Assembly (NCBI GenBank): GCA_937915825.1
Contig: CALGGT010000043.1
Coordinates: 1-56,673, forward strand
Source of the DNA: an uncultured Eubacterium sp.
Lineage (GTDB): Bacteria > Bacillota > Clostridia > Lachnospirales > Lachnospiraceae
Direction of reading: 5' to 3'
Length of the DNA stretch: 56,673 nt
The stretch's first letter is position 1; each line of letters begins with the position of its first letter. A program made the translations under genes and the position numbers. This document shows, in pieces, positions 2,500-26,026 of the stretch. The notes beneath the pieces are model-generated. The model was not told the DNA's origin and searched no databases. It saw nothing but the letters and a program-made list of their open reading frames with translations.

Positions 2500-3069
2500 T
2501 TAGTTTTTTTTTCGAACCGAATAGCCAAACGTTCCAATTTTCTCTCCCAGCGGGCAATAGGCCCCGTGGGAATATGCAATCAAACCGGTGTCTTCCAGGT
2601 TGAATTTCCCGGAGTCCGTCATATATTCCTCACTGACTAATACGCCCACTACCTCTGCCATAAACATGTGATGGCTTCCTAACTTCAATACGTCTGTCAC
2701 CTTACACTCAATATTCACGGGGCTTTCTTCAATGATCGGCGCATATTCCAAATGCTTTGCCTCCCCCGGTGTAAGCTTCATTTCTTTAAATTTGTCCCAT
2801 TTTTCTCCGGAACGAACGCCGCACCAATCCGCTGCCCTTACCAGATCTCTGGTGGTAAGATTGATCACGAACTCTCCGGTATCCCGGATCAACTGGTAGG
2901 AATAACGAGAGGGACGAACCGATATGGATACCATAACCGGATCGGAACATATGGTTCCTGTCCAGGCAATGGTGAGTATGTTATTCTTCCCTTTTTTTGT
3001 GGCACAGCTGACCATAACAGCCGGCACGGGATATAACATATTTCCCGGTCTCCATTCCAACTTTGACAT
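2500..3069 (-). CDS. Flavin reductase / flavoredoxin family protein
   Basis: LYPVPAVMVS, SVRPSRYSY, GEFVINL, ECKV and GSHHMF motifs. Confidence 0.88.
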   Translation of the reverse strand: MSKLEWRPGNMLYPVPAVMVSCATKKGKNNILTIAWTGTICSDPVMVSISVRPSRYSYQLIRDTGEFVINLTTRDLVRAADWCGVRSGEKWDKFKEMKLTPGEAKHLEYAPIIEESPVNIECKVTDVLKLGSHHMFMAEVVGVLVSEEYMTDSGKFNLEDTGLIAYSHGAYCPLGEKIGTFGYSVRKKN

Positions 3070-5864: not shown

Positions 5865-6129
5865 TCCGTGCGCCTCACGTCGAATTACTCTGGTGGAACG
5901 TTACCGACACAGTTAACTCATTTCAGGCACCCTCACGACACATAAAAATCATCGCTTAGTGCTGCTTCATTCCTGACCTGACACGGTTCACAAGTTCCTA
6001 TTGCGCAAGACCCGAAAGTCAACGCCACTTGCACCGGGCAGCTTCCCTTCGAATAACCCTCTGTAAGACATCACCCCTGCTATAGCGGATTGCAGGTTCA
6101 GGGCACCGCTAACTCCCCGGCTGCACGGA
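5865..6129 (-). ncRNA. ffs: Large bacterial signal recognition particle RNA (scRNA)
   Basis: Minus strand has the Alu-domain start GGGGAGTTAGCGGTGCCCTGAACCTGCAATCCGCT and helix-8 motif GTGTCAGGTCAGGAATGAAGCAGCAC. The ends pair (TCCGTGC...GCACGGA). Confidence 0.95.
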
Positions 6130-8276: not shown

Positions 8277-8339
8277 GTTTTTACCTCCTTATTTATTTTT
8301 CCCGGGATCGCATCCCAGGTGAATACTGCCGGAGTTTAT

Positions 8340-8456
8340 AAAAAACCCCTTTCTTCCGCATGAGAAGAAAGGGGAATTATCATTCATTCCTTATACTCCT
8401 CGGTAGGCGGTGCAAAACACTTACATCAAATCTGATACCTACTGTCTACGGCAGTC
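8340..8456 (-). promoter_or_regulatory. Ribosomal protein L10 leader with attenuator hairpin
   Basis: CCGTAGACAGTAGGT...CCTACCGAGG motif followed by CCCCTTTCTTC...GAAGAAAGGGGTTTTTT, upstream of rplJ. Confidence 0.88.
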
Positions 8457-8553
8457 ATGTGTTATATTAACATACCGGTCTCCCGGTTGTCAACCTTTTT
8501 TTGAGAACTGTACGAATTTACCTGAGAACGGTCAGGAATTTCCTCGACTGTTT

Positions 8554-10874: not shown

Positions 10875-11104
10875 GTTACGATTCACAGCCAGCATGGTAT
10901 AGACGCACAGATTGACAGCTTGCTGGCATATCTGGGCGGGTTATGCCATGCTGACTGGAATCTGTCACTTTTCACACATGACTGTGACTGCCGCAATCGC
11001 GGCGGTAGAGTCTTGCGCTTGATGCGTCGTGTCAGCTGGCTGTTCACGACCAAGAGCGCATAGCGTGTCACAGGAATGTGGGGAAAGTGGCTGTGAATCG
11101 TCAT
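10875..11104. repeat. Full-length copy 1 of the dispersed structured element (MITE/REP-like or ncRNA)
   Basis: Terminal inverted repeats GTTACGATTCACAGCC...GGCTGTGAATCGTCAT. Internal 11024-11065 is the exact reverse complement of 25843-25884. Confidence 0.85.
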
Positions 11105-11106
11105 TT

Positions 11107-12012
11107 TTATTCTTCTAATTGAAGCCCCTGCAGCAAACTTCCCAGTGACGTGGTAGCTTCCCCTTCATCGGAATATTCGATTTCCGGTTCTTCTTCGTTC
11201 CGTTCCACTTTGGTTTCATCTTCCAGCGCTTTCATACTTAAACGGATCTTGCCATCCTCCACATCTAAAACCTTTACATTTACCTTCATTCCCAGCTTTA
11301 CCACTTCATTGGGAGAATGCAAGAACTTATTGGTGATCTGGGAAATATGTACCAGACCGGTTAGGTCCGGACCAATCTCCACAAAGCAGCCGTAGGGCTC
11401 GATCCGTACCACTTCTCCTTCCGTTACAAAGCCTTTTTGCAGTGCCTGTAATTGTTTCTCATGCGCCTTAGCAGCCTGTTGTTTCTTCACTTCCTTCGCG
11501 GACAACACCAGACGATTTTGCTCTTCTTCCACGGTAATAACCTGAACGGATACTTTTTCCCCCACATAGGTTCCGGGGTCTTCTACATAGTGAAGATCCA
11601 GCTGAGAGGCGGGAATAAATCCACGAATCCCCTCTACATAGGTGATCACGCCGGAAGGAACCTCTTCTTTTACCGTTACTTCATAGATCTTTTGGGTCTC
11701 TCGCGCATCTCTCAACGCCTCCCAGGCCGTTTCGGTTGCCGCCTGCCTCAGGGAAGTAACAATTCTTCCTTCTTCATCCTCGTACAGGATCGTTACTTTC
11801 ACAAGATCTCCTACTTTCAACTCATCCATGGCATGAAAATCCGGATCGTTGGAATATTCTTCCTTCGGGATCACCCCGGTCTCATAGGAATGGAGGTCTA
11901 ACGTTACTTCCTCTTCTTCCACCTTAACGATCTCAGCCTGGATCACGTCCCCTTCTTTCCATTTATGAAAGGACGCGTTGATCTCTTCCTCAAAATCTTC
12001 CATTCGTTCCAT
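11107..12012 (-). CDS. S1 RNA-binding domain protein (three S1 domains, RpsA-like)
   Basis: GIRGFIPASQL, YGCFVEIG..LTGLVHISQI, KIRLSMK. Confidence 0.88.
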   Translation of the reverse strand: MERMEDFEEEINASFHKWKEGDVIQAEIVKVEEEEVTLDLHSYETGVIPKEEYSNDPDFHAMDELKVGDLVKVTILYEDEEGRIVTSLRQAATETAWEALRDARETQKIYEVTVKEEVPSGVITYVEGIRGFIPASQLDLHYVEDPGTYVGEKVSVQVITVEEEQNRLVLSAKEVKKQQAAKAHEKQLQALQKGFVTEGEVVRIEPYGCFVEIGPDLTGLVHISQITNKFLHSPNEVVKLGMKVNVKVLDVEDGKIRLSMKALEDETKVERNEEEPEIEYSDEGEATTSLGSLLQGLQLEE

Positions 12013-13748: not shown

Positions 13749-15707
13749 TTAGCAGATCTCCGCACCGGCCGGCATCGGTTGATCCGGGGTCATCAGGGCC
13801 AGATTCCCGTCCTGATCCTCTGCGCAAAGCAGCATTCCTTCCGATAACACACCTGCTAATTTCGCCGGTTTCAGATTCACCAAAACCATCACTTCTTTTC
13901 CTACCATATCTTCCGGGGAATAGAACTTCTTGATCCCGGAAACGATCTGTTTGATCTCACTGCCGATCTGAACCTTGGAACATAACAACTTCTTGGATTT
14001 CGGCACTTCTTCACACGCAAGGATCTTTCCAACCTGGAATTGCATTTTTCCAAAGTCCTCGAAGGTAATCTCCGGTTTCGGTTCCAGATCGATTCCTTCT
14101 TCCAGCCCCTGTTCCTTTCTGGCTTCTTCTTCCGCCTTTGCCTCTTCGGCCTGGATTTCATCCATAACTTCCTTCTCATCCAGACGGGCAAACAAAATCT
14201 CGGGTTTTTCCACAACCCGGGTTCCGGAAACATAATCCTCAAAACGAAGAGAATCGAAATCCGATGTTTCCCCATGGATCTGTTCCAGGATCTTCTCCGA
14301 TGTCTCCGGCATAAAGGACTCCAGCAAAATAGCACCCAGGCGGATTCCCGCAGTCAGGTTATACAACACCGTCGCCAAACGATCTTTCTTTTCTTCATCC
14401 TTGGCCAATACCCAGGGCTCTGTCTCATCAATGTATTTATTACAGCGCTTAAAGACGGTAAAGATCTCTGTGATGGCGTCTGCAACCCGAAGGGCGTCCA
14501 TTTTATCTGCCACCTTCTGAGGCGCCGCGGTGAGTACCCCTTTGAAATCGTCATCCACCTCTTCTTTTACGCCTTTGTCGCAAACCACTCCATCAAAGTA
14601 TTTTTGACTCATGGAAATCGTACGGTTTACGAGATTCCCCAGAACGTTGGCCAGATCCGAGTTATTTCGCTCGATCACCAATTCCCAGGTGATATTTCCA
14701 TCGTTTTCAAAAGGCATCTCATGCAATACAAAATAACGAACCGCATCCACACCAAATCGTTTCACCAGATCATCGGCGTAAATAACATTTCCTTTGGATT
14801 TACTCATCTTATCATTGTTCATTAACAGCCAGGGATGCCCAAACACCTGCTTCGGCAACGGCACATCTAGCGCCATTAAGATAATCGGCCAATAAATCGT
14901 ATGGAAACGGATAATATCTTTTCCGATCAGGTGAACGTCCGCCGGCCAGTATTTTTCATACAGATCTTTGTGATCTCCGTCTGCGTCATACCCAAGACCG
15001 GTAATATAGTTGCTTAACGCGTCAATCCAAACATATACAATATGGCCGGGATCAAATTCCACCGGGATCCCCCATGTAAAGCTGGTTCGGGACACACACA
15101 GGTCCTGAAGGCCGGGTTTTAAGAAGTTATTCACCATCTCATTCTTACGTGACTCCGGCTGAATGAACTCCGGATGCTCCTCAATATGCTTCATTAAGCG
15201 ATCCTGATATTTGCTTAGCTTTAAGAAATAGGCTTCTTCCTTGGCCGGCTGAACTTCTCTTCCGCAATCCGGACATTTCCCATCCACCAGCTGGGAGGTC
15301 GTAAAAAATGATTCGCAAGGCGTACAATACATGCCTTCATAAAACCCTTTATAAATATCTCCCTGCTCATAAAGCTTGGTAAATATCTTTTTCACTTGTT
15401 CTTCGTGATCCGGATCCGTAGTACGGATAAAACGATCGTAGGTGGTATTCATCATATCCCAGATCCCCTTCAACTCCGAAGATACCCGATCCACAAACTC
15501 TTTCGGTGTAATTCCACTTTCTTCTGCCTTTAATTGAATTTTTTGTCCATGCTCGTCGGTTCCGGTTTGAAAGCGAACATCATAACCTTGGAACCGTTTG
15601 AAACGGACAATGGCGTCTGCCAACACGATCTCGTAAGTATTTCCGATGTGGGGTTTCCCGGATGTATAGGCAATGGCCGTTGTAAGATAATAGGGTTTTT
15701 TTGCCAT
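13749..15707 (-). CDS. metG: Methionyl-tRNA synthetase with C-terminal tRNA-binding domain
   Basis: HIGN, GTDEHGQK, Zn knuckle, KMSKS. Start at MAKKPY after GGAGG. Confidence 0.97.
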   Translation of the reverse strand: MAKKPYYLTTAIAYTSGKPHIGNTYEIVLADAIVRFKRFQGYDVRFQTGTDEHGQKIQLKAEESGITPKEFVDRVSSELKGIWDMMNTTYDRFIRTTDPDHEEQVKKIFTKLYEQGDIYKGFYEGMYCTPCESFFTTSQLVDGKCPDCGREVQPAKEEAYFLKLSKYQDRLMKHIEEHPEFIQPESRKNEMVNNFLKPGLQDLCVSRTSFTWGIPVEFDPGHIVYVWIDALSNYITGLGYDADGDHKDLYEKYWPADVHLIGKDIIRFHTIYWPIILMALDVPLPKQVFGHPWLLMNNDKMSKSKGNVIYADDLVKRFGVDAVRYFVLHEMPFENDGNITWELVIERNNSDLANVLGNLVNRTISMSQKYFDGVVCDKGVKEEVDDDFKGVLTAAPQKVADKMDALRVADAITEIFTVFKRCNKYIDETEPWVLAKDEEKKDRLATVLYNLTAGIRLGAILLESFMPETSEKILEQIHGETSDFDSLRFEDYVSGTRVVEKPEILFARLDEKEVMDEIQAEEAKAEEEARKEQGLEEGIDLEPKPEITFEDFGKMQFQVGKILACEEVPKSKKLLCSKVQIGSEIKQIVSGIKKFYSPEDMVGKEVMVLVNLKPAKLAGVLSEGMLLCAEDQDGNLALMTPDQPMPAGAEIC

Positions 15708-15749: not shown

Positions 15750-15778
15750 AGTATAAAAAAAATATTAGGAATTGTCAA
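15750..15778 (-). promoter_or_regulatory. Sigma-A promoter of metG
   Basis: TTGACA-17 bp-TATACT. Confidence 0.8.
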
Positions 15779-15799: not shown

Positions 15800-15843
15800 C
15801 TTTCTTCCAGAGTCTGTCCTCCCAAAAAAGATCCAAGACATTC

Positions 15844-15878
15844 AAAAAAGGAGCCACAGCAAAATCCGTGGCTCCTCT
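15844..15878 (-). terminator. Intrinsic terminator closing the riboswitch transcription unit
   Basis: AGGAGCCACGG-ATTTT-GCTGTGGCTCC-TTTTTT on the minus strand. Confidence 0.8.
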
Positions 15879-15955
15879 AGTGAAAAAAAGAGGCGTTATT
15901 CAATCGTCTTCGTCATCATCCATATTCATATCATCCACCCGGTAGTCTATCCTAT

Positions 15956-15984
15956 AAAAAAACACCACCCGGACTGTGTGATGC
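15956..15984 (-). terminator. Riboswitch expression-platform terminator
   Basis: GCATCAC...GTGGTG stem followed by a T7 run, directly 3' of the aptamer. Confidence 0.65.
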
Positions 15985-15992
15985 TTCATCTT

Positions 15993-16066
15993 AGTGCAAC
16001 TGGCTGACATCTTACAGTCCCTATAGCTTTGCGTCACAAGCTTTCACTTGCTTTGCCTCTTATCTT
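15993..16066 (-). promoter_or_regulatory. c-di-GMP-I (GEMM) riboswitch aptamer
   Basis: Minus strand GGCAAAGCAAGT-GAAA-GCTTGTGACGCAAAGCTATAGGGACTGTAAGATGTCAGCCAGTTGC matches the GEMM consensus. Confidence 0.93.
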
Positions 16067-16105
16067 AAATTGTTCGTTTCTATGTTGTTTTCTTTTGATG
16101 GTTTT

Positions 16106-16134
16106 ATGATATCATAAATCCGGAAAAAAGTCAA
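16106..16134 (-). promoter_or_regulatory. Sigma-A promoter upstream of the riboswitch
   Basis: TTGACT-17 bp-TATCAT with an extended TG. Confidence 0.72.
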
Positions 16135-16161
16135 GAAAATCCTGACACTTTCCTAAAAATC

Positions 16162-16242
16162 GCACGATTTACAGCCCCCTACCCCAATTCTTGGGGCTCG
16201 CTATGGGCTCTTGGTCGTGAACAGCCAGCTGACACGACGCAT
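16162..16242. repeat. Truncated copy of the dispersed structured element
   Basis: ACGATTTACAGCC end motif plus a 48-bp module (16193-16240) differing by one base from 25837-25884. Confidence 0.85.
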
Positions 16243-16243
16243 G

Positions 16244-16277
16244 AAAAAGGGATCCTCCCGAAAAGGAGAATCCCTTT
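16244..16277 (-). terminator. Terminator of the multi-Ig surface protein gene
   Basis: AAAGGGATTCTCC-TTTTCG-GGAGGATCCC-TTTTT on the minus strand. Confidence 0.75.
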
Positions 16278-16303: not shown

Positions 16304-19300
16304 TTATTTGATCTTTGTCTTCTTCGGCAATTTGCTCTTCTTCAGCATCTTTTTGTATGCTTTCTTCTTGGAACCGGGAACTTTGATCTTTAATTTCTTC
16401 GCCGCTCCGGCAAATGCCTTCTTTCCAACGGAAACCAAAACTTTGGATCGAATCGTGATCTTCTTTAATTTCTTACATTTCACAAATGCCTTTTTCTTAA
16501 TGCTTTTCACTTTGGAACCGATCACAACACTCTTTAGTTTCTTTTGGTTCTTAAATGCCTTTTTCTCAATGGAAACCACATTGTAATTCTTTTGGTTGTA
16601 TTGAATGGAGGCCGGAACACTGAACTTCTTCAACTTTCCTTTTACGCCGATCAATCCAACGGTTCCTTCACCGATCACTTTGTATTTTCCATCGCCAACC
16701 CACATGGTAGTTTCTACCGCTTCCACCGATGCATCATAGGTTGCAGGACTTGTTGTTCCAGACGGTGCAGCCGGGGTGACAGACGCATTTGCACTTGCAG
16801 AAGGAACTGCACTTTCCCCAGGTGTCTCACTTCCTACAGGCGTCGGACTTGTAACAGGCGTTACACTTTCCCCGGGTGCTGCACTTTCCCCAGGTGTCTC
16901 ACTTTCTGTAGGTGCCGCGCTTTCCACTGTTCCCGAGGTTTCTTCGTTGGCATCGGTGGGCACAGGCGTTTCAACCGCAGGCACCCCCGAAGGAATTGCG
17001 GTGGGTACCACGTCAGGTACTGCCGTAGGTTCCTCACTGGACTCAACACCTGCCTCTTTTTCTTTGATCTCGCTTACACGATAGCCGGCATGGAGTTCAT
17101 TCATCATATAATAATATAAATAAGCGTAACTCCCGATGTTCGTGGGAATTAAACTGGAACTCTGTTCCGAGTAATTTTCACGGGTCATTCCCGCAAATCG
17201 TACCGCAAATGTTGCGGAATCTCCATCTAATTCAATGGTCTTACCGGCAACATCCTCACCATTCTCACCAAAGGAACAAACCACTTCTCCCTTCGAATTC
17301 AAAACATCCAGAGAAAGTTGTACATTCAACTCTTTTAATACCTCATTTTTAATAAGGATGGATACATCCTTATCAAAGGTAATCTGCAACGACTCTGCCC
17401 CCGCAACCTGATAAGTTTCAAACAGCGTTCCGATTACTTTTTCTATGTCCGCATCCCCTTCAACATCCTCGTATTGAAACAATAAGTCCGAAACATCGAA
17501 TGCCGGCAGATCTTCTTGGAGGCATGCATCCGAATCCAGGATTGCAAGCATGATCTTCGCAGAAGCACTGTTGTTTCTGGTATCTTGACACGTAACTTTC
17601 ACCATGGCAATTTGTACGCCGGGAGCCACCTGGATAAAATCTTTCTCATCTACCTGATATTCACAGGATAACGATTGAGAATCCAATATTCTTCGAGTTT
17701 TCGAGGTTTGAATGTTCCAAGTTACATCCGGGGTATCCGGAAACGCACAGGTTGCTTCAAGTTTCACGGTATCTCCCGGTTTTACGTATTGAGTTCCCGG
17801 CTCATCGCCCTGAATGGTTACCGATTGATTCCGAGACATGGCCAATACCTCTGCCTCATAAATCGCGGTGGATAAATCCGTTCGAACAACACAGACGTAA
17901 CGAACACCGGGTGCAAGATCGTCTTCATTCGGTAATACCGTTAAAACAGGTTTTGTTGCTCCGGTTATATTCGAAATCGTACCATCATCCTCCACTTTCT
18001 TCCATTGATACGTCGGCTCATTGCCAATGGAAGAAACAGCTGTCGCATCCATGGTCACTTTGCTTCCAAAGACAACCGCGAAGCTTTCTCTTCGAACGCG
18101 GTAAGCTTTCTCATCCTCTACATATTCGTCTGCCGGCGTTCCGGAAACAAAATCCCTGATTTTAGGATTCGAGGTGCTATATTTGGTAAGCTTACTGTAA
18201 AGATTATTCGGAACAAGACATCCTTCTTCTTCTGCCGAACTCATGACATAACCATCCAGCGTCGTCACATGATCCCGTTCCTCTTGATCCGCAAATGTTA
18301 AATAGTCATCGGGTCGCAAACATACATAATACTCAGCCGAATAGGATTCATTATGCTTGGTTATTATATAAACCCCATAATCCTCTTTCGTCACATTGGA
18401 GAACAAAATATTCGCCGACTTCGTATCCAGCATTGTTACATATCGATAGGAATCACGATCATACTTCTGAACCCTGTAATACACGTCAGAACCGGTGATC
18501 GCCTTCGCATCCGGAACAATATCGTTTACATTGATCTGAAGGCTCTCGCCAATTCCCACTGCAAACGGTTTATATCCTACATAGGAAACGATCGGGGACT
18601 TCTCATATATGGTATAATAACCACTGTTCACAGACTGATTTCCATTGCTGACAGCACAATAGTAGCCACAATGAAATGTATCTTCCGTCACCTCATCAAT
18701 GGTATAAACCGAACTGGTCGCTCCCTGGATCTCCACGATGGAATAATCCTCAAACACCTGATACCATTGATAATGAAGCTCTCCATTTACACAGTTGGCT
18801 GCCACGGACAAACTGACACTGTCTCCCAAAGACGCCTGCTTTGCAGTATGTCCGGTGTCCAATATATCAATCCCATAATCATCGCTAACTACAAACCCGG
18901 TAGATGCGGTGATCATTTGTTCGTTACCATTGCTATCTGTATAGGTAACATTTACAACCATCTGACCGCTTTGATCCGGATTCAGATCTTTTAAAACCAG
19001 TTCCTTTCCGGTTTCCTCCAATAAGGTTGGAATCGGATTCCCATTGTTATCATACATACCGTTGTTCGGATATAACAACCATTGATATTGAGGATTTGTC
19101 CCATTTCGAAATTCTACGGTAAAATGCGCTTCCTCCCCTTCCATAAACGCGTCTACTTCCTCGCCTGCTTCATTCACCACATACAGAGCGGCATTGGGAC
19201 TTCCGGTCACACTCCCAAATATGCTGATCGAATAGGTAAATACCTGATGGTCCACTTCCTCATCCTTTTTCTTGATCGTAACCTCACATAGATATTTCCC

Positions 19301-20251
19301 TGCATCTTCACTTTGTAATTTGACCAGCTTTAACGTATCTTTCGTCTCACCGTCAATTTTATTTTCCTCTTCCATTTGCCCCTTATACCATTGATAGGAC
19401 GCTGTATAATCCGTATCATTGATCTTTGTACTTACCTTAAGGATCTCAGTATCTCCTTCATTAACAGAGCGGTATGTCGTTCCAAGGGACTTAATGACAT
19501 AAGGCGTTTCTGTTTTATACTGGATGATGTAGTTTACCACCTGGACTTCAATCCCATCGCTAACCCTGCAATAGAATTGGGTCACATTCTCATCCGCATC
19601 GTATACATAATCCAACGTATCCTCTGTGGCGCCTGAAATACTCACATTCTCATCATTGATAACCTTGAACCATTGATACGTAATCTCCCCGCGGGTAGAG
19701 GATGCCTTTCCTTCCATATGAAGTTCTTCCTGGTCCTTGGGATTGGTTAAATAATTCGTGTCGGACGTTTCAAGGCTTAGGACTCCTGTTTTCGGAGTGA
19801 TCCCAAAATATATTTCTGCCACGGATATCTTCTCGTTGTCCGTATCCTGAAAATAATAATCACTTTCTTCCTCTAATTGATTGGTCACTTTGCAATAATA
19901 ACTTCCCCAGTTTGCCTGAGACGTAATTGTTATAGAAAAACTAGCTTCGGTTGCACCGTCGATTTTTTGATAACCGGCTCCCAACTCAAACTTATACCAT
20001 TGATAGGTTGTCTCGCAGGGAACAACGCCTCCACCAATCTGAAACACTTTCGATGAAACGCCTATTTCAGCGGTTTCCCCGATCTCTGCATGTACCTCCC
20101 GGTCCGTTGCAAGCGCAACACTTGCCACCACTTCCTCTTGTTCCGCCGCCTTTGCCGTTGTGGATATGGTCCCGGATACATCCGCGAGTGCAGTCACACA
20201 CAGCAAAACCAAGCTTAACGTGAAAGCTAAAACCCTCTTTTTTTGTTTCAT
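16304..20251 (-). CDS. Secreted/surface protein: signal peptide, about 8 Ig-like domains, CUB-like domain, Pro/Thr/Ser linker, basic BspA-type LRR tail
   Basis: Signal peptide MKQKKRVLAFTLSLVLLCVTALA, repeated YQW...YxC motifs, and SIEKKAFKNQKKLKSVVIG repeats at the C-terminus. GGAGG RBS. Confidence 0.85.
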   Translation of the reverse strand: MKQKKRVLAFTLSLVLLCVTALADVSGTISTTAKAAEQEEVVASVALATDREVHAEIGETAEIGVSSKVFQIGGGVVPCETTYQWYKFELGAGYQKIDGATEASFSITITSQANWGSYYCKVTNQLEEESDYYFQDTDNEKISVAEIYFGITPKTGVLSLETSDTNYLTNPKDQEELHMEGKASSTRGEITYQWFKVINDENVSISGATEDTLDYVYDADENVTQFYCRVSDGIEVQVVNYIIQYKTETPYVIKSLGTTYRSVNEGDTEILKVSTKINDTDYTASYQWYKGQMEEENKIDGETKDTLKLVKLQSEDAGKYLCEVTIKKKDEEVDHQVFTYSISIFGSVTGSPNAALYVVNEAGEEVDAFMEGEEAHFTVEFRNGTNPQYQWLLYPNNGMYDNNGNPIPTLLEETGKELVLKDLNPDQSGQMVVNVTYTDSNGNEQMITASTGFVVSDDYGIDILDTGHTAKQASLGDSVSLSVAANCVNGELHYQWYQVFEDYSIVEIQGATSSVYTIDEVTEDTFHCGYYCAVSNGNQSVNSGYYTIYEKSPIVSYVGYKPFAVGIGESLQINVNDIVPDAKAITGSDVYYRVQKYDRDSYRYVTMLDTKSANILFSNVTKEDYGVYIITKHNESYSAEYYVCLRPDDYLTFADQEERDHVTTLDGYVMSSAEEEGCLVPNNLYSKLTKYSTSNPKIRDFVSGTPADEYVEDEKAYRVRRESFAVVFGSKVTMDATAVSSIGNEPTYQWKKVEDDGTISNITGATKPVLTVLPNEDDLAPGVRYVCVVRTDLSTAIYEAEVLAMSRNQSVTIQGDEPGTQYVKPGDTVKLEATCAFPDTPDVTWNIQTSKTRRILDSQSLSCEYQVDEKDFIQVAPGVQIAMVKVTCQDTRNNSASAKIMLAILDSDACLQEDLPAFDVSDLLFQYEDVEGDADIEKVIGTLFETYQVAGAESLQITFDKDVSILIKNEVLKELNVQLSLDVLNSKGEVVCSFGENGEDVAGKTIELDGDSATFAVRFAGMTRENYSEQSSSLIPTNIGSYAYLYYYMMNELHAGYRVSEIKEKEAGVESSEEPTAVPDVVPTAIPSGVPAVETPVPTDANEETSGTVESAAPTESETPGESAAPGESVTPVTSPTPVGSETPGESAVPSASANASVTPAAPSGTTSPATYDASVEAVETTMWVGDGKYKVIGEGTVGLIGVKGKLKKFSVPASIQYNQKNYNVVSIEKKAFKNQKKLKSVVIGSKVKSIKKKAFVKCKKLKKITIRSKVLVSVGKKAFAGAAKKLKIKVPGSKKKAYKKMLKKSKLPKKTKIK

Positions 20252-20286
20252 AGAAATTCCTCCTTTATTTTTCCCCAATCCATTTG

Positions 20287-25298: not shown

Positions 25299-25326
25299 TT
25301 GACATTCCCACGGTTTTTGATATAAT
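25299..25326 (+). promoter_or_regulatory. Consensus sigma-A promoter
   Basis: TTGACA-16 bp-TATAAT with an extended TG. Confidence 0.8.
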
Positions 25327-25496
25327 GATGTCAAGGTCTGAAGATAAAGCAGTGCTTGTGCTTGCACAAATGCACGGTTTTATCTGAGGACCGCTAAAAC
25401 ATGAGCAAGTAGCCATTTACGCAGTAAATGCGCGGATTGCGAATGTTTTTAGCACGACGTGAATTGCGCAGCAATAAAGTCGTGCGTTGACATCAT
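25325..25496 (+). ncRNA. Four-stem (four-way junction) structured element, possibly of the Clostridiales-1 motif type
   Basis: Closing stem ATGATGTCAA/TTGACATCAT encloses three contiguous hairpins (25335-25392, 25393-25453, 25454-25483). Family assignment and strand are from recall, not a search. Confidence 0.6.
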
Positions 25497-25804: not shown

Positions 25805-26026
25805 GTTACGATCCAACGCTCCCTGTCCTCATTCTCGGGGCTCGCTATGCGCTCTTGGTCGTGAACAGCCAGCTGACACGACGCTTCCAGTGCAAGGCTC
25901 TATTGCCGCATTTCCGGCTGCCCCAATCATGCAGGGACAGGTTGCTGATTCGTCGGTCTGGCATGGCATCGCTTTTGAAAGCAAACTTTCCAGCGATGCC
26001 ATGCCAGACCGACGGTGAATCGTAAC
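25805..26026. repeat. Full-length copy 2 of the dispersed structured element, in opposite orientation to copy 1
   Basis: GTTACGATCCAACG...CGGTGAATCGTAAC ends, shared 42-bp core, and a perfect 23-bp internal stem CGTCGGTCTGGCATGGCATCGCT/AGCGATGCCATGCCAGACCGACG. Confidence 0.85.

Follow-up and report, generated by a model that had tools for sequence, protein, structure and literature searches.

The window, that is, the whole 56,673-nt stretch of DNA that was analysed, carries on its minus strand a c-di-GMP-I riboswitch unit that is flanked by two genes lying outside it. Downstream of the unit is metG, which encodes methionyl-tRNA synthetase (13749–15707, minus strand; Pfam matches to tRNA-synt_1g at 8.3e-116, Anticodon_3 and tRNA_bind) and has GGAGG ahead of its ATG at 15707. 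The first-pass annotation had given metG a separate promoter, and one is indeed present at 15778–15750 on the minus strand (TTGACA-17-TATACT, 11 of 12 matches). Upstream of the unit, a gene for a 1324-aa surface-type protein with Ig_3 and BspA-type LRR_5 domains occupies 16304–20278 (minus strand) and, as read from the sequence, ends in its own terminator near 16243–16273. The description of the riboswitch unit as having no ordinary gene was upheld: ahead of its last terminator there is no ORF beyond those of 9 or 29 aa, and a downstream gene controlled in cis was thus not found.

Several other RNA elements and repeats were noted in the window. One copy of an intergenic repeat of ~77 bp (consensus start TTGAAGCGTCGTGTCAGCTGGCTGTTCACGACC) sits between the terminator of the upstream gene and the riboswitch promoter, at 16164–16240 (minus strand), with further copies in the window at 11019–11109 (plus strand) and 25818–25884 (minus strand). 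The 1.85-Mb genome gave 24 BLAST hits to this repeat at 83–100% identity, including copies on contigs C98, C41, C17, C37, C54 and others; some copies are arranged as tandem pairs ~160 bp apart, and contig ends account for 8 of the hits. The repeat has a conserved GUCGUG...CACGAC hairpin and no Rfam match. Rfam hits above cut-off elsewhere in the window were a Clostridiales-1 RNA at 25326–25495 (plus strand, 117 bits), a large SRP RNA at 5866–6128 (minus strand, 174 bits) and an L10 leader at 8331–8469 (minus strand, 67 bits).

Promoter, aptamer and terminators of the riboswitch unit

The unit begins with the sigma-A-type promoter that had been annotated for it, at 16134–16106 on the minus strand, which consists of a TTGACT -35 box, a 17-nt spacer and a TG-extended TATCAT -10 box (10 of 12 matches). 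Because the scan returned 3 promoter-like sites in 1 kb against 1.6 +/- 1.3 expected, the case for this promoter is one of quality and position and not of statistics. A terminator-like hairpin (GTCAGGATTTTCTTGAC) with a T-run at 16130–16146 (minus strand) overlaps its -35 box.

The GEMM aptamer, which the first-pass annotation had called intact and had proposed to check by covariance model, was confirmed as c-di-GMP-I (GEMM-I) at 15992–16067 on the minus strand. It scored 56.7 bits with Rfam model RF01051 against a gathering score of 35, covering model positions 1–87 of 87, with an E-value of 1.7e-8 when the whole window was searched and 1.9e-10 for 621 nt. The core is present, comprising GGCAAA, a GNRA-capped P2 whose tetraloop is GAAA in the alignment to the RF01051 consensus, GACGCAAAGC, and a short P3 closed by CAGCC; only two pairs are non-standard relative to that consensus. 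The 3' half of the aptamer is nearly identical to that of five aptamers in the genus that have genes behind them. No other Rfam family reached its cut-off between 15700 and 16320.

Two intrinsic terminators follow, as had been annotated. The first (T1, 15956–15987, minus strand) is a hairpin of -10.3 kcal/mol followed by seven T, with ACAGUCC (15977–15971) in its loop. The second (T2, 15844–15878, minus strand) has a 13-bp stem of -26.2 kcal/mol and a T-run. The distance from the end of the T1 T-run to the T2 stem is 77 nt, in agreement with the earlier estimate of about 75 nt. Both terminators were called from ViennaRNA folds; a simple terminator scan listed the hairpin at 16146–16130 as its sole site and missed T1 and T2, probably because the stems of both extend into their T-tracts. 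The spacer between T1 and T2 folds more poorly than shuffled sequences (z = +2.12; equalled or bettered by 199 of 200 shuffles), so it holds no second structured element. A second aptamer within the spacer was likewise rejected, given this folding result and the lack of any Rfam match at cut-off. The T1–T2 segment had no match in the 60 other genomes searched. The repeated CCGGGTGG pointed out in the first-pass annotation does occur in T1 (15965–15972) and just before the small ORF (15935–15942), but may be a chance repeat, because the same 521 nt hold three further exact 8-nt direct repeats. The window contains 5 copies against 1.5 expected, a number reached in 3 of 100 shuffles, and the repeat was not considered a compelling signal.

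In minimum-free-energy folds, the 5' strand of P3 (GGGACUGU, 16014–16021, minus strand) is predicted to act as an antiterminator arm by pairing with ACAGUCC in the T1 loop. Together with a GAUGU/GCAUC pairing, this structure would displace P3 and T1 alike, and it appears in the folds from transcription of position 15971 onward. In silico, therefore, the expression platform would compete with the aptamer, as a c-di-GMP-I riboswitch platform should. Since the predicted antiterminator excludes both P3 and T1, and bound ligand would hold P3 closed so that T1 forms, the unit may be taken for an OFF switch in which c-di-GMP leads to termination at T1. OFF behaviour is also what has been reported for class I riboswitches of Clostridioides difficile (PMC11477304). 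The ligand is presumably made in this genome, as nine GGDEF matches were found in it. No decay is visible in the promoter, the aptamer or T1, which fits a recent deletion of the controlled gene and equally fits retention of the unit for a function.

The acidic reading frame and the riboswitch-controlled Big_2 family

The only coding potential in the unit is the acidic micro-ORF MNMDDDEDD (15929–15900, minus strand), whose frame is open back to an ATG at 15989 to give 29 aa; both frames had been recorded in the first-pass annotation and both are present. The micro-ORF forms part of a 15900–15944 segment (minus strand) that is best read from its sequence as the 3' stump of a deleted cargo gene, retaining the last 14 codons and the stop (YRVDDMNMDDDEDD*). 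The genome has only two c-di-GMP-I aptamers, and the best non-self match to this tail in the genome is the C-terminus of the gene behind the other one, the only other riboswitch-controlled gene present. This second unit lies on contig C68 (C68:7864-8878, minus strand; locus L002 562-1576), with its aptamer at C68:8803-8878 (53.9 bits). The gene behind this aptamer encodes a secreted protein of 285 aa, which has a signal peptide, a lysine-rich stretch, two Big_2-like domains (Pfam Big_2, 6.2e-8) and a polyacidic linker and ends in ...VYVYDVDDIDDDDDDEDDDD*.

The similarity between the two tails extends over 14 low-complexity codons. In a genome-wide blastn-short search the best non-self hit of the remnant was to the 3' end of the C68 gene, with 21 nt aligned at 90.5% identity up to the stop codon of both, and a genome-wide tblastn search matched YRVDDMNMDDDEDD with YDVDDIDDDDDDED at an E-value of 0.19. 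With so short a sequence of low complexity, the E-values of the tail matches (0.19 and 1.5) are weak, and neither is significant alone. Such tails are rare, with only 4 of 147,392 stops in the six frames of the genome preceded by at least 8 D/E in 11 codons, and 2 of these 4 sit behind the two aptamers of the genome. Similarly, of 3,629 frames of at least 100 aa, only 3 have D or E at 6 or more of their last 8 positions. The relic was missing from the 377 hits at E <= 1000 of a profile HMM that had been built on the C-terminal 45 residues of 10 family members.

The C68 protein belongs to a family with Big_2 domains and an acidic tail, of which 11 members were found among the 12 loci fetched from the genus. 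All 11 have the acidic tail, placed after ...TV(I/Y)DD or ...TVKPD(D/E); within the last 8 residues, the D/E count is 6 or more in 7 of them, 5 in 1 and 3 in the other 3. The segment in the window shows the same arrangement, an acidic C-terminal tail that directly follows ...V(I/Y)DD and runs up to the stop codon. The window locus is called a relic because it lacks the signal peptide and the Big_2 domains. An orthologue of the C68 gene in genome G077 (locus L052) is likewise found behind a c-di-GMP-I aptamer. The family member examined in genome G028 has a plain promoter.

The C68 unit and its G077 orthologue resemble the window unit in aptamer type, with a short P3 and a 3' half that is one position apart, in their order of promoter, aptamer and terminator with T-run, and in the acidic tail that stands immediately before the stop codon of the cargo protein. 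They differ in having a full gene of 285–301 aa where the window retains about 14 codons. As read from the alignment, the P2 stems of the window and C68 aptamers differ by paired changes, and the two riboswitch units of the genome are therefore likely to be old paralogues and not the result of a recent copy. The secreted Big_2 family with its polyacidic linker and tail is thereby linked to c-di-GMP control in two species, which fits the known bias of c-di-GMP switches toward surface and adhesion functions.

Across the genus, 8 of 72 genomes contained a c-di-GMP-I aptamer. One copy, truncated by a contig end, was left out as not assessable; each of the 10 other assessable aptamers is followed, within 166 nt, by the start of an ORF of 175 aa or more. 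At none of these 10 loci, from a survey of 72 genus genomes (71 besides that of the window), does metG lie downstream. Comparison of the region upstream of metG in relatives, which the first-pass annotation had suggested as a way to find a lost gene, did not yield one: the genes upstream of metG vary across 29 loci from other genomes, and a cruder motif scan of metG loci from these other genomes found no GEMM core there. In the closest metG relative, genome G074, the ORF upstream of metG is not significantly similar to the LRR protein of the window (E 0.88). Identity at the MetG N-terminus reaches no more than 90% among the genus representatives compared. A junction of contigs C158 and C154 that would join the family gene to metG in genome G028 was discarded, a tRNA gene being found after that family gene. 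Exact-pattern scans of metagenome contigs with T1 and with T2 gave no match, and so no strain with an intact gene, in a collection that may omit records near the genome of the window.

Proposed origin of the unit and competing explanations

Taken together, the riboswitch upstream of metG has probably lost the gene that it controlled while keeping the last 14 codons and the terminator of that gene. A deletion of roughly 0.8 kb or more would have taken away the ribosome-binding site and, almost in full, the gene or genes downstream. It is a deletion that we infer and have not observed, as the search turned up no relative in which the ancestral gene is still intact here. What was lost is most likely a paralogue from the secreted family, whose proteins combine a lysine-rich N-terminus with two Big_2 domains and an acidic tail. 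What remains would be the promoter, the aptamer, the T1 terminator/antiterminator platform, the last 14 codons with their stop, and T2, presumably the terminator of the lost gene. Gene loss would fit the small size of the genome, which at 1.85 Mb and 96% completeness is the smallest of those listed for the genus with a completeness of >=90%. The identity and number of the deleted genes are uncertain, because the aptamer and platform are slightly nearer to the riboswitch of a GGDEF gene in genome G088 (66 of 76 and 36 of 45 positions identical, respectively) than to those of C68 (62 and 29). These similarities were judged too weak to name the nearest riboswitch lineage.

On the same reading, the promoter would still be active today. 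Without c-di-GMP, GGGACUGU of P3 would pair with ACAGUCC in the T1 loop and polymerase would read ~110 nt on, to T2; with c-di-GMP, the aptamer would keep P3, T1 would form and a transcript of ~145 nt would be released. In either state there would be no translation product and the unit would serve no present function, with T2 likely shielding metG, which is driven by its own promoter. The unit is thus probably an evolutionary leftover rather than a new kind of regulator. The first-pass annotation had offered a deleted-gene remnant, a c-di-GMP-gated sRNA or micropeptide, and a ligand-sponge RNA; the remnant gains from the in-frame acidic tail that matches the riboswitch-controlled Big_2 family at the stop codon, and the others have nothing specific in their favour.

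It is nevertheless conceivable, if unlikely, that the unit works as a c-di-GMP-gated small RNA, whether it was exapted from the relic or has never been coding, with a short isoform ending at T1 and a long one at T2; it would act either through base pairing of the spacer, which is GA-rich and unstructured, or as a sponge that buffers c-di-GMP. The promoter, aptamer and platform are all intact, the nine GGDEF matches indicate a source of ligand, C. difficile has class I riboswitches that lack a gene or control an RNA (PMC6200980, PMC11477304), and other families of the order contain gene-less units that appear to be conserved. A conserved RNA body or an identifiable partner, as a riboswitch-gated regulatory RNA should have, was not found here, however: the T1–T2 segment is without homologue in the genomes searched, the spacer is unstructured, and the coding ancestry of the unit already explains an in-frame acidic tail that ends at a stop codon. 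The ORFs on the opposite strand are Ser-rich and polar with no hydrophobic, toxin-like ORF among them, which rules against a toxin-antitoxin pair of type I. A CsrA sponge acting through GGAUGA motifs was also dismissed, as a PF02599 search of this 96%-complete genome found no CsrA and the motifs follow from GAT codons. A related and equally doubtful proposal is that the leader, having lost its cargo, has been kept as a constitutive c-di-GMP-binding RNA whose length is set by the ligand at ~145 nt (T1) or ~255 nt (T2), and which would buffer the ligand or act in trans through the unstructured GA-rich spacer. If true, the locus would be a snapshot of a riboswitch leader under exaptation into a small-RNA gene.

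Translation of MNMDDDEDD or of the 29-aa frame as a riboswitch-controlled micropeptide appears very unlikely. Small proteins under class I c-di-GMP riboswitches are described in C. difficile (PMC13724677, PMC11477304), and GGTGG stands 5 nt ahead of the ATG at 15929; as a Shine-Dalgarno sequence, however, GGUGG matches poorly, no comparable site precedes the 29-aa frame, whose start falls within the T1 flank, the unit shows no conservation across the 60 other genomes, and the known small proteins are 58-aa and membrane-associated, compared with a 9-aa polyanion here. It is just as hard to credit the unit with tuning metG, whether by read-through of a dual-terminator platform like that of Bc1 or as a leader-peptide attenuator. 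Two terminators in one c-di-GMP-I platform are documented (PMC11218506) and the unit has the same orientation as metG, but T2 and metG are separated by a promoter with 11 of 12 matches, whereas a Bc1-type platform would have both terminators in one leader that runs on to its gene with no promoter in between; T2 is moreover very stable. The terminators are separated by 77 nt rather than the 28 bp of Bc1, two Met in nine codons do not make a Met-rich leader, and the association with metG recurs neither at the 10 other assessable genus aptamers nor, as a GEMM core, at the 29 metG loci.

The remaining explanation, that a full gene between T1 and T2 was collapsed in the metagenome assembly, is highly improbable. 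The genome is a draft of 107 contigs and the related gene is rich in GAT/GAC repeats, yet the sole repeat flanking the junction is 8 nt long. Such a collapse, which the first-pass annotation had wanted excluded by read mapping, is made unlikely by a separately assembled Logan contig from run X1. It spans 15836–16027 with 0 differences and more than 31 nt on each side of the junction, and runs from T2 across the relic and T1 into the aptamer. This contig, from a run of depth ~4 that may be the source sample of the window itself, excludes an assembler-specific collapse, not a minority variant. A Logan contig from a second run, X2, covers 15956–16110. A search for sequencing runs that hold the sequence listed none of RNA.

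Other gene-less units and comparison with known systems

Thirty c-di-GMP-I aptamer loci were sampled across the order, of which 29 were assessable; at 10 of these 29, no ORF of 60 aa or more starts within 200 nt. Three loci (L073, L077 and L078) belong to a single genus from another family of the order, one locus in each of three species. Their aptamers score 86–89 bits and are followed in the same way (1–330 nt downstream) by a terminator, a stretch of ~130 nt in which UUGGGGGA/GGGGAG motifs recur, and a second terminator. Their genomic contexts differ and they have no same-strand ORF of at least 45 aa; possible ORFs of 17–25 aa beginning LVF... were seen by eye only. Two further loci (L076 and L080), from two species of another genus, carry 3–4 hairpins of the form ATATCC-(U)CCCCCC-UAUU-GGAUAT past the riboswitch terminator, ~60–480 nt downstream. 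These hairpins have C-rich, anti-Shine-Dalgarno-like loops and are interleaved with GC-rich hairpins, a terminator closes the array, and the motif occurs nowhere else in the two genomes (4 of 4 exact hits). The array is a candidate c-di-GMP-gated sRNA, and both sets of units seem more promising than the window unit as true c-di-GMP-gated RNAs. At another locus (L089), a c-di-GMP-I aptamer is followed ~1.1 kb downstream by a pemK RNA motif (2729–2825, plus strand, 63.3 bits); no ORF of 60 aa or more starts within 390 nt of this aptamer.

If its origin is as proposed, the window unit is a clean and datable-looking case of how an orphan riboswitch arises, in which the sensor and the terminator outlive the gene and a stump of 14 codons still tells what kind of cargo was lost. 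It also cautions that a gene-less riboswitch need not mean a new class of sRNA, and it suggests a simple test for other orphans, namely to look between the platform and the terminator that follows for relics of coding sequence. Riboswitches of the c-di-GMP-I class that lack a gene are already known, and the stranding of one is in itself unsurprising; no paper was found that describes a coding stump behind a c-di-GMP riboswitch.

Among known systems, Bc1 of Bacillus thuringiensis resembles the window unit in that a class I aptamer is followed by two intrinsic terminators (PMC11218506). In Bc1 these are 28 bp apart and lie in the leader of real downstream genes, whereas in the window 77 nt separate the T1 T-run from the T2 stem, a coding relic lies between the terminators and a promoter comes after T2. 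The RCd11 and RCd12 antitoxins of C. difficile show that a riboswitch can gate a non-coding transcript instead of an mRNA (PMC11477304); they differ from the window unit, for which no antisense toxin ORF, conserved RNA body or CsrA was found.

The closest parallel is with the gene-less class I riboswitches of C. difficile. McKee et al. reported 5 of 12 class I riboswitches of this species to be without a detectable downstream coding sequence (PMC6200980), and a 2024 review describes an orphan between CD2517 and CD2517.1 as well as two riboswitch-driven antitoxin RNAs and small proteins (PMC11477304). The riboswitch-controlled small proteins have since been tied to sporulation (PMC13724677). 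Like the window unit, the gene-less cases are clostridial, combine an aptamer with a terminator platform in a transcription unit of their own, with no coding sequence behind. Some of them were later assigned to antitoxin RNAs or small proteins, neither of which was seen in the window. The window unit differs from these orphans in that a recognisable cargo stump and a terminator remain, which point to a concrete origin.
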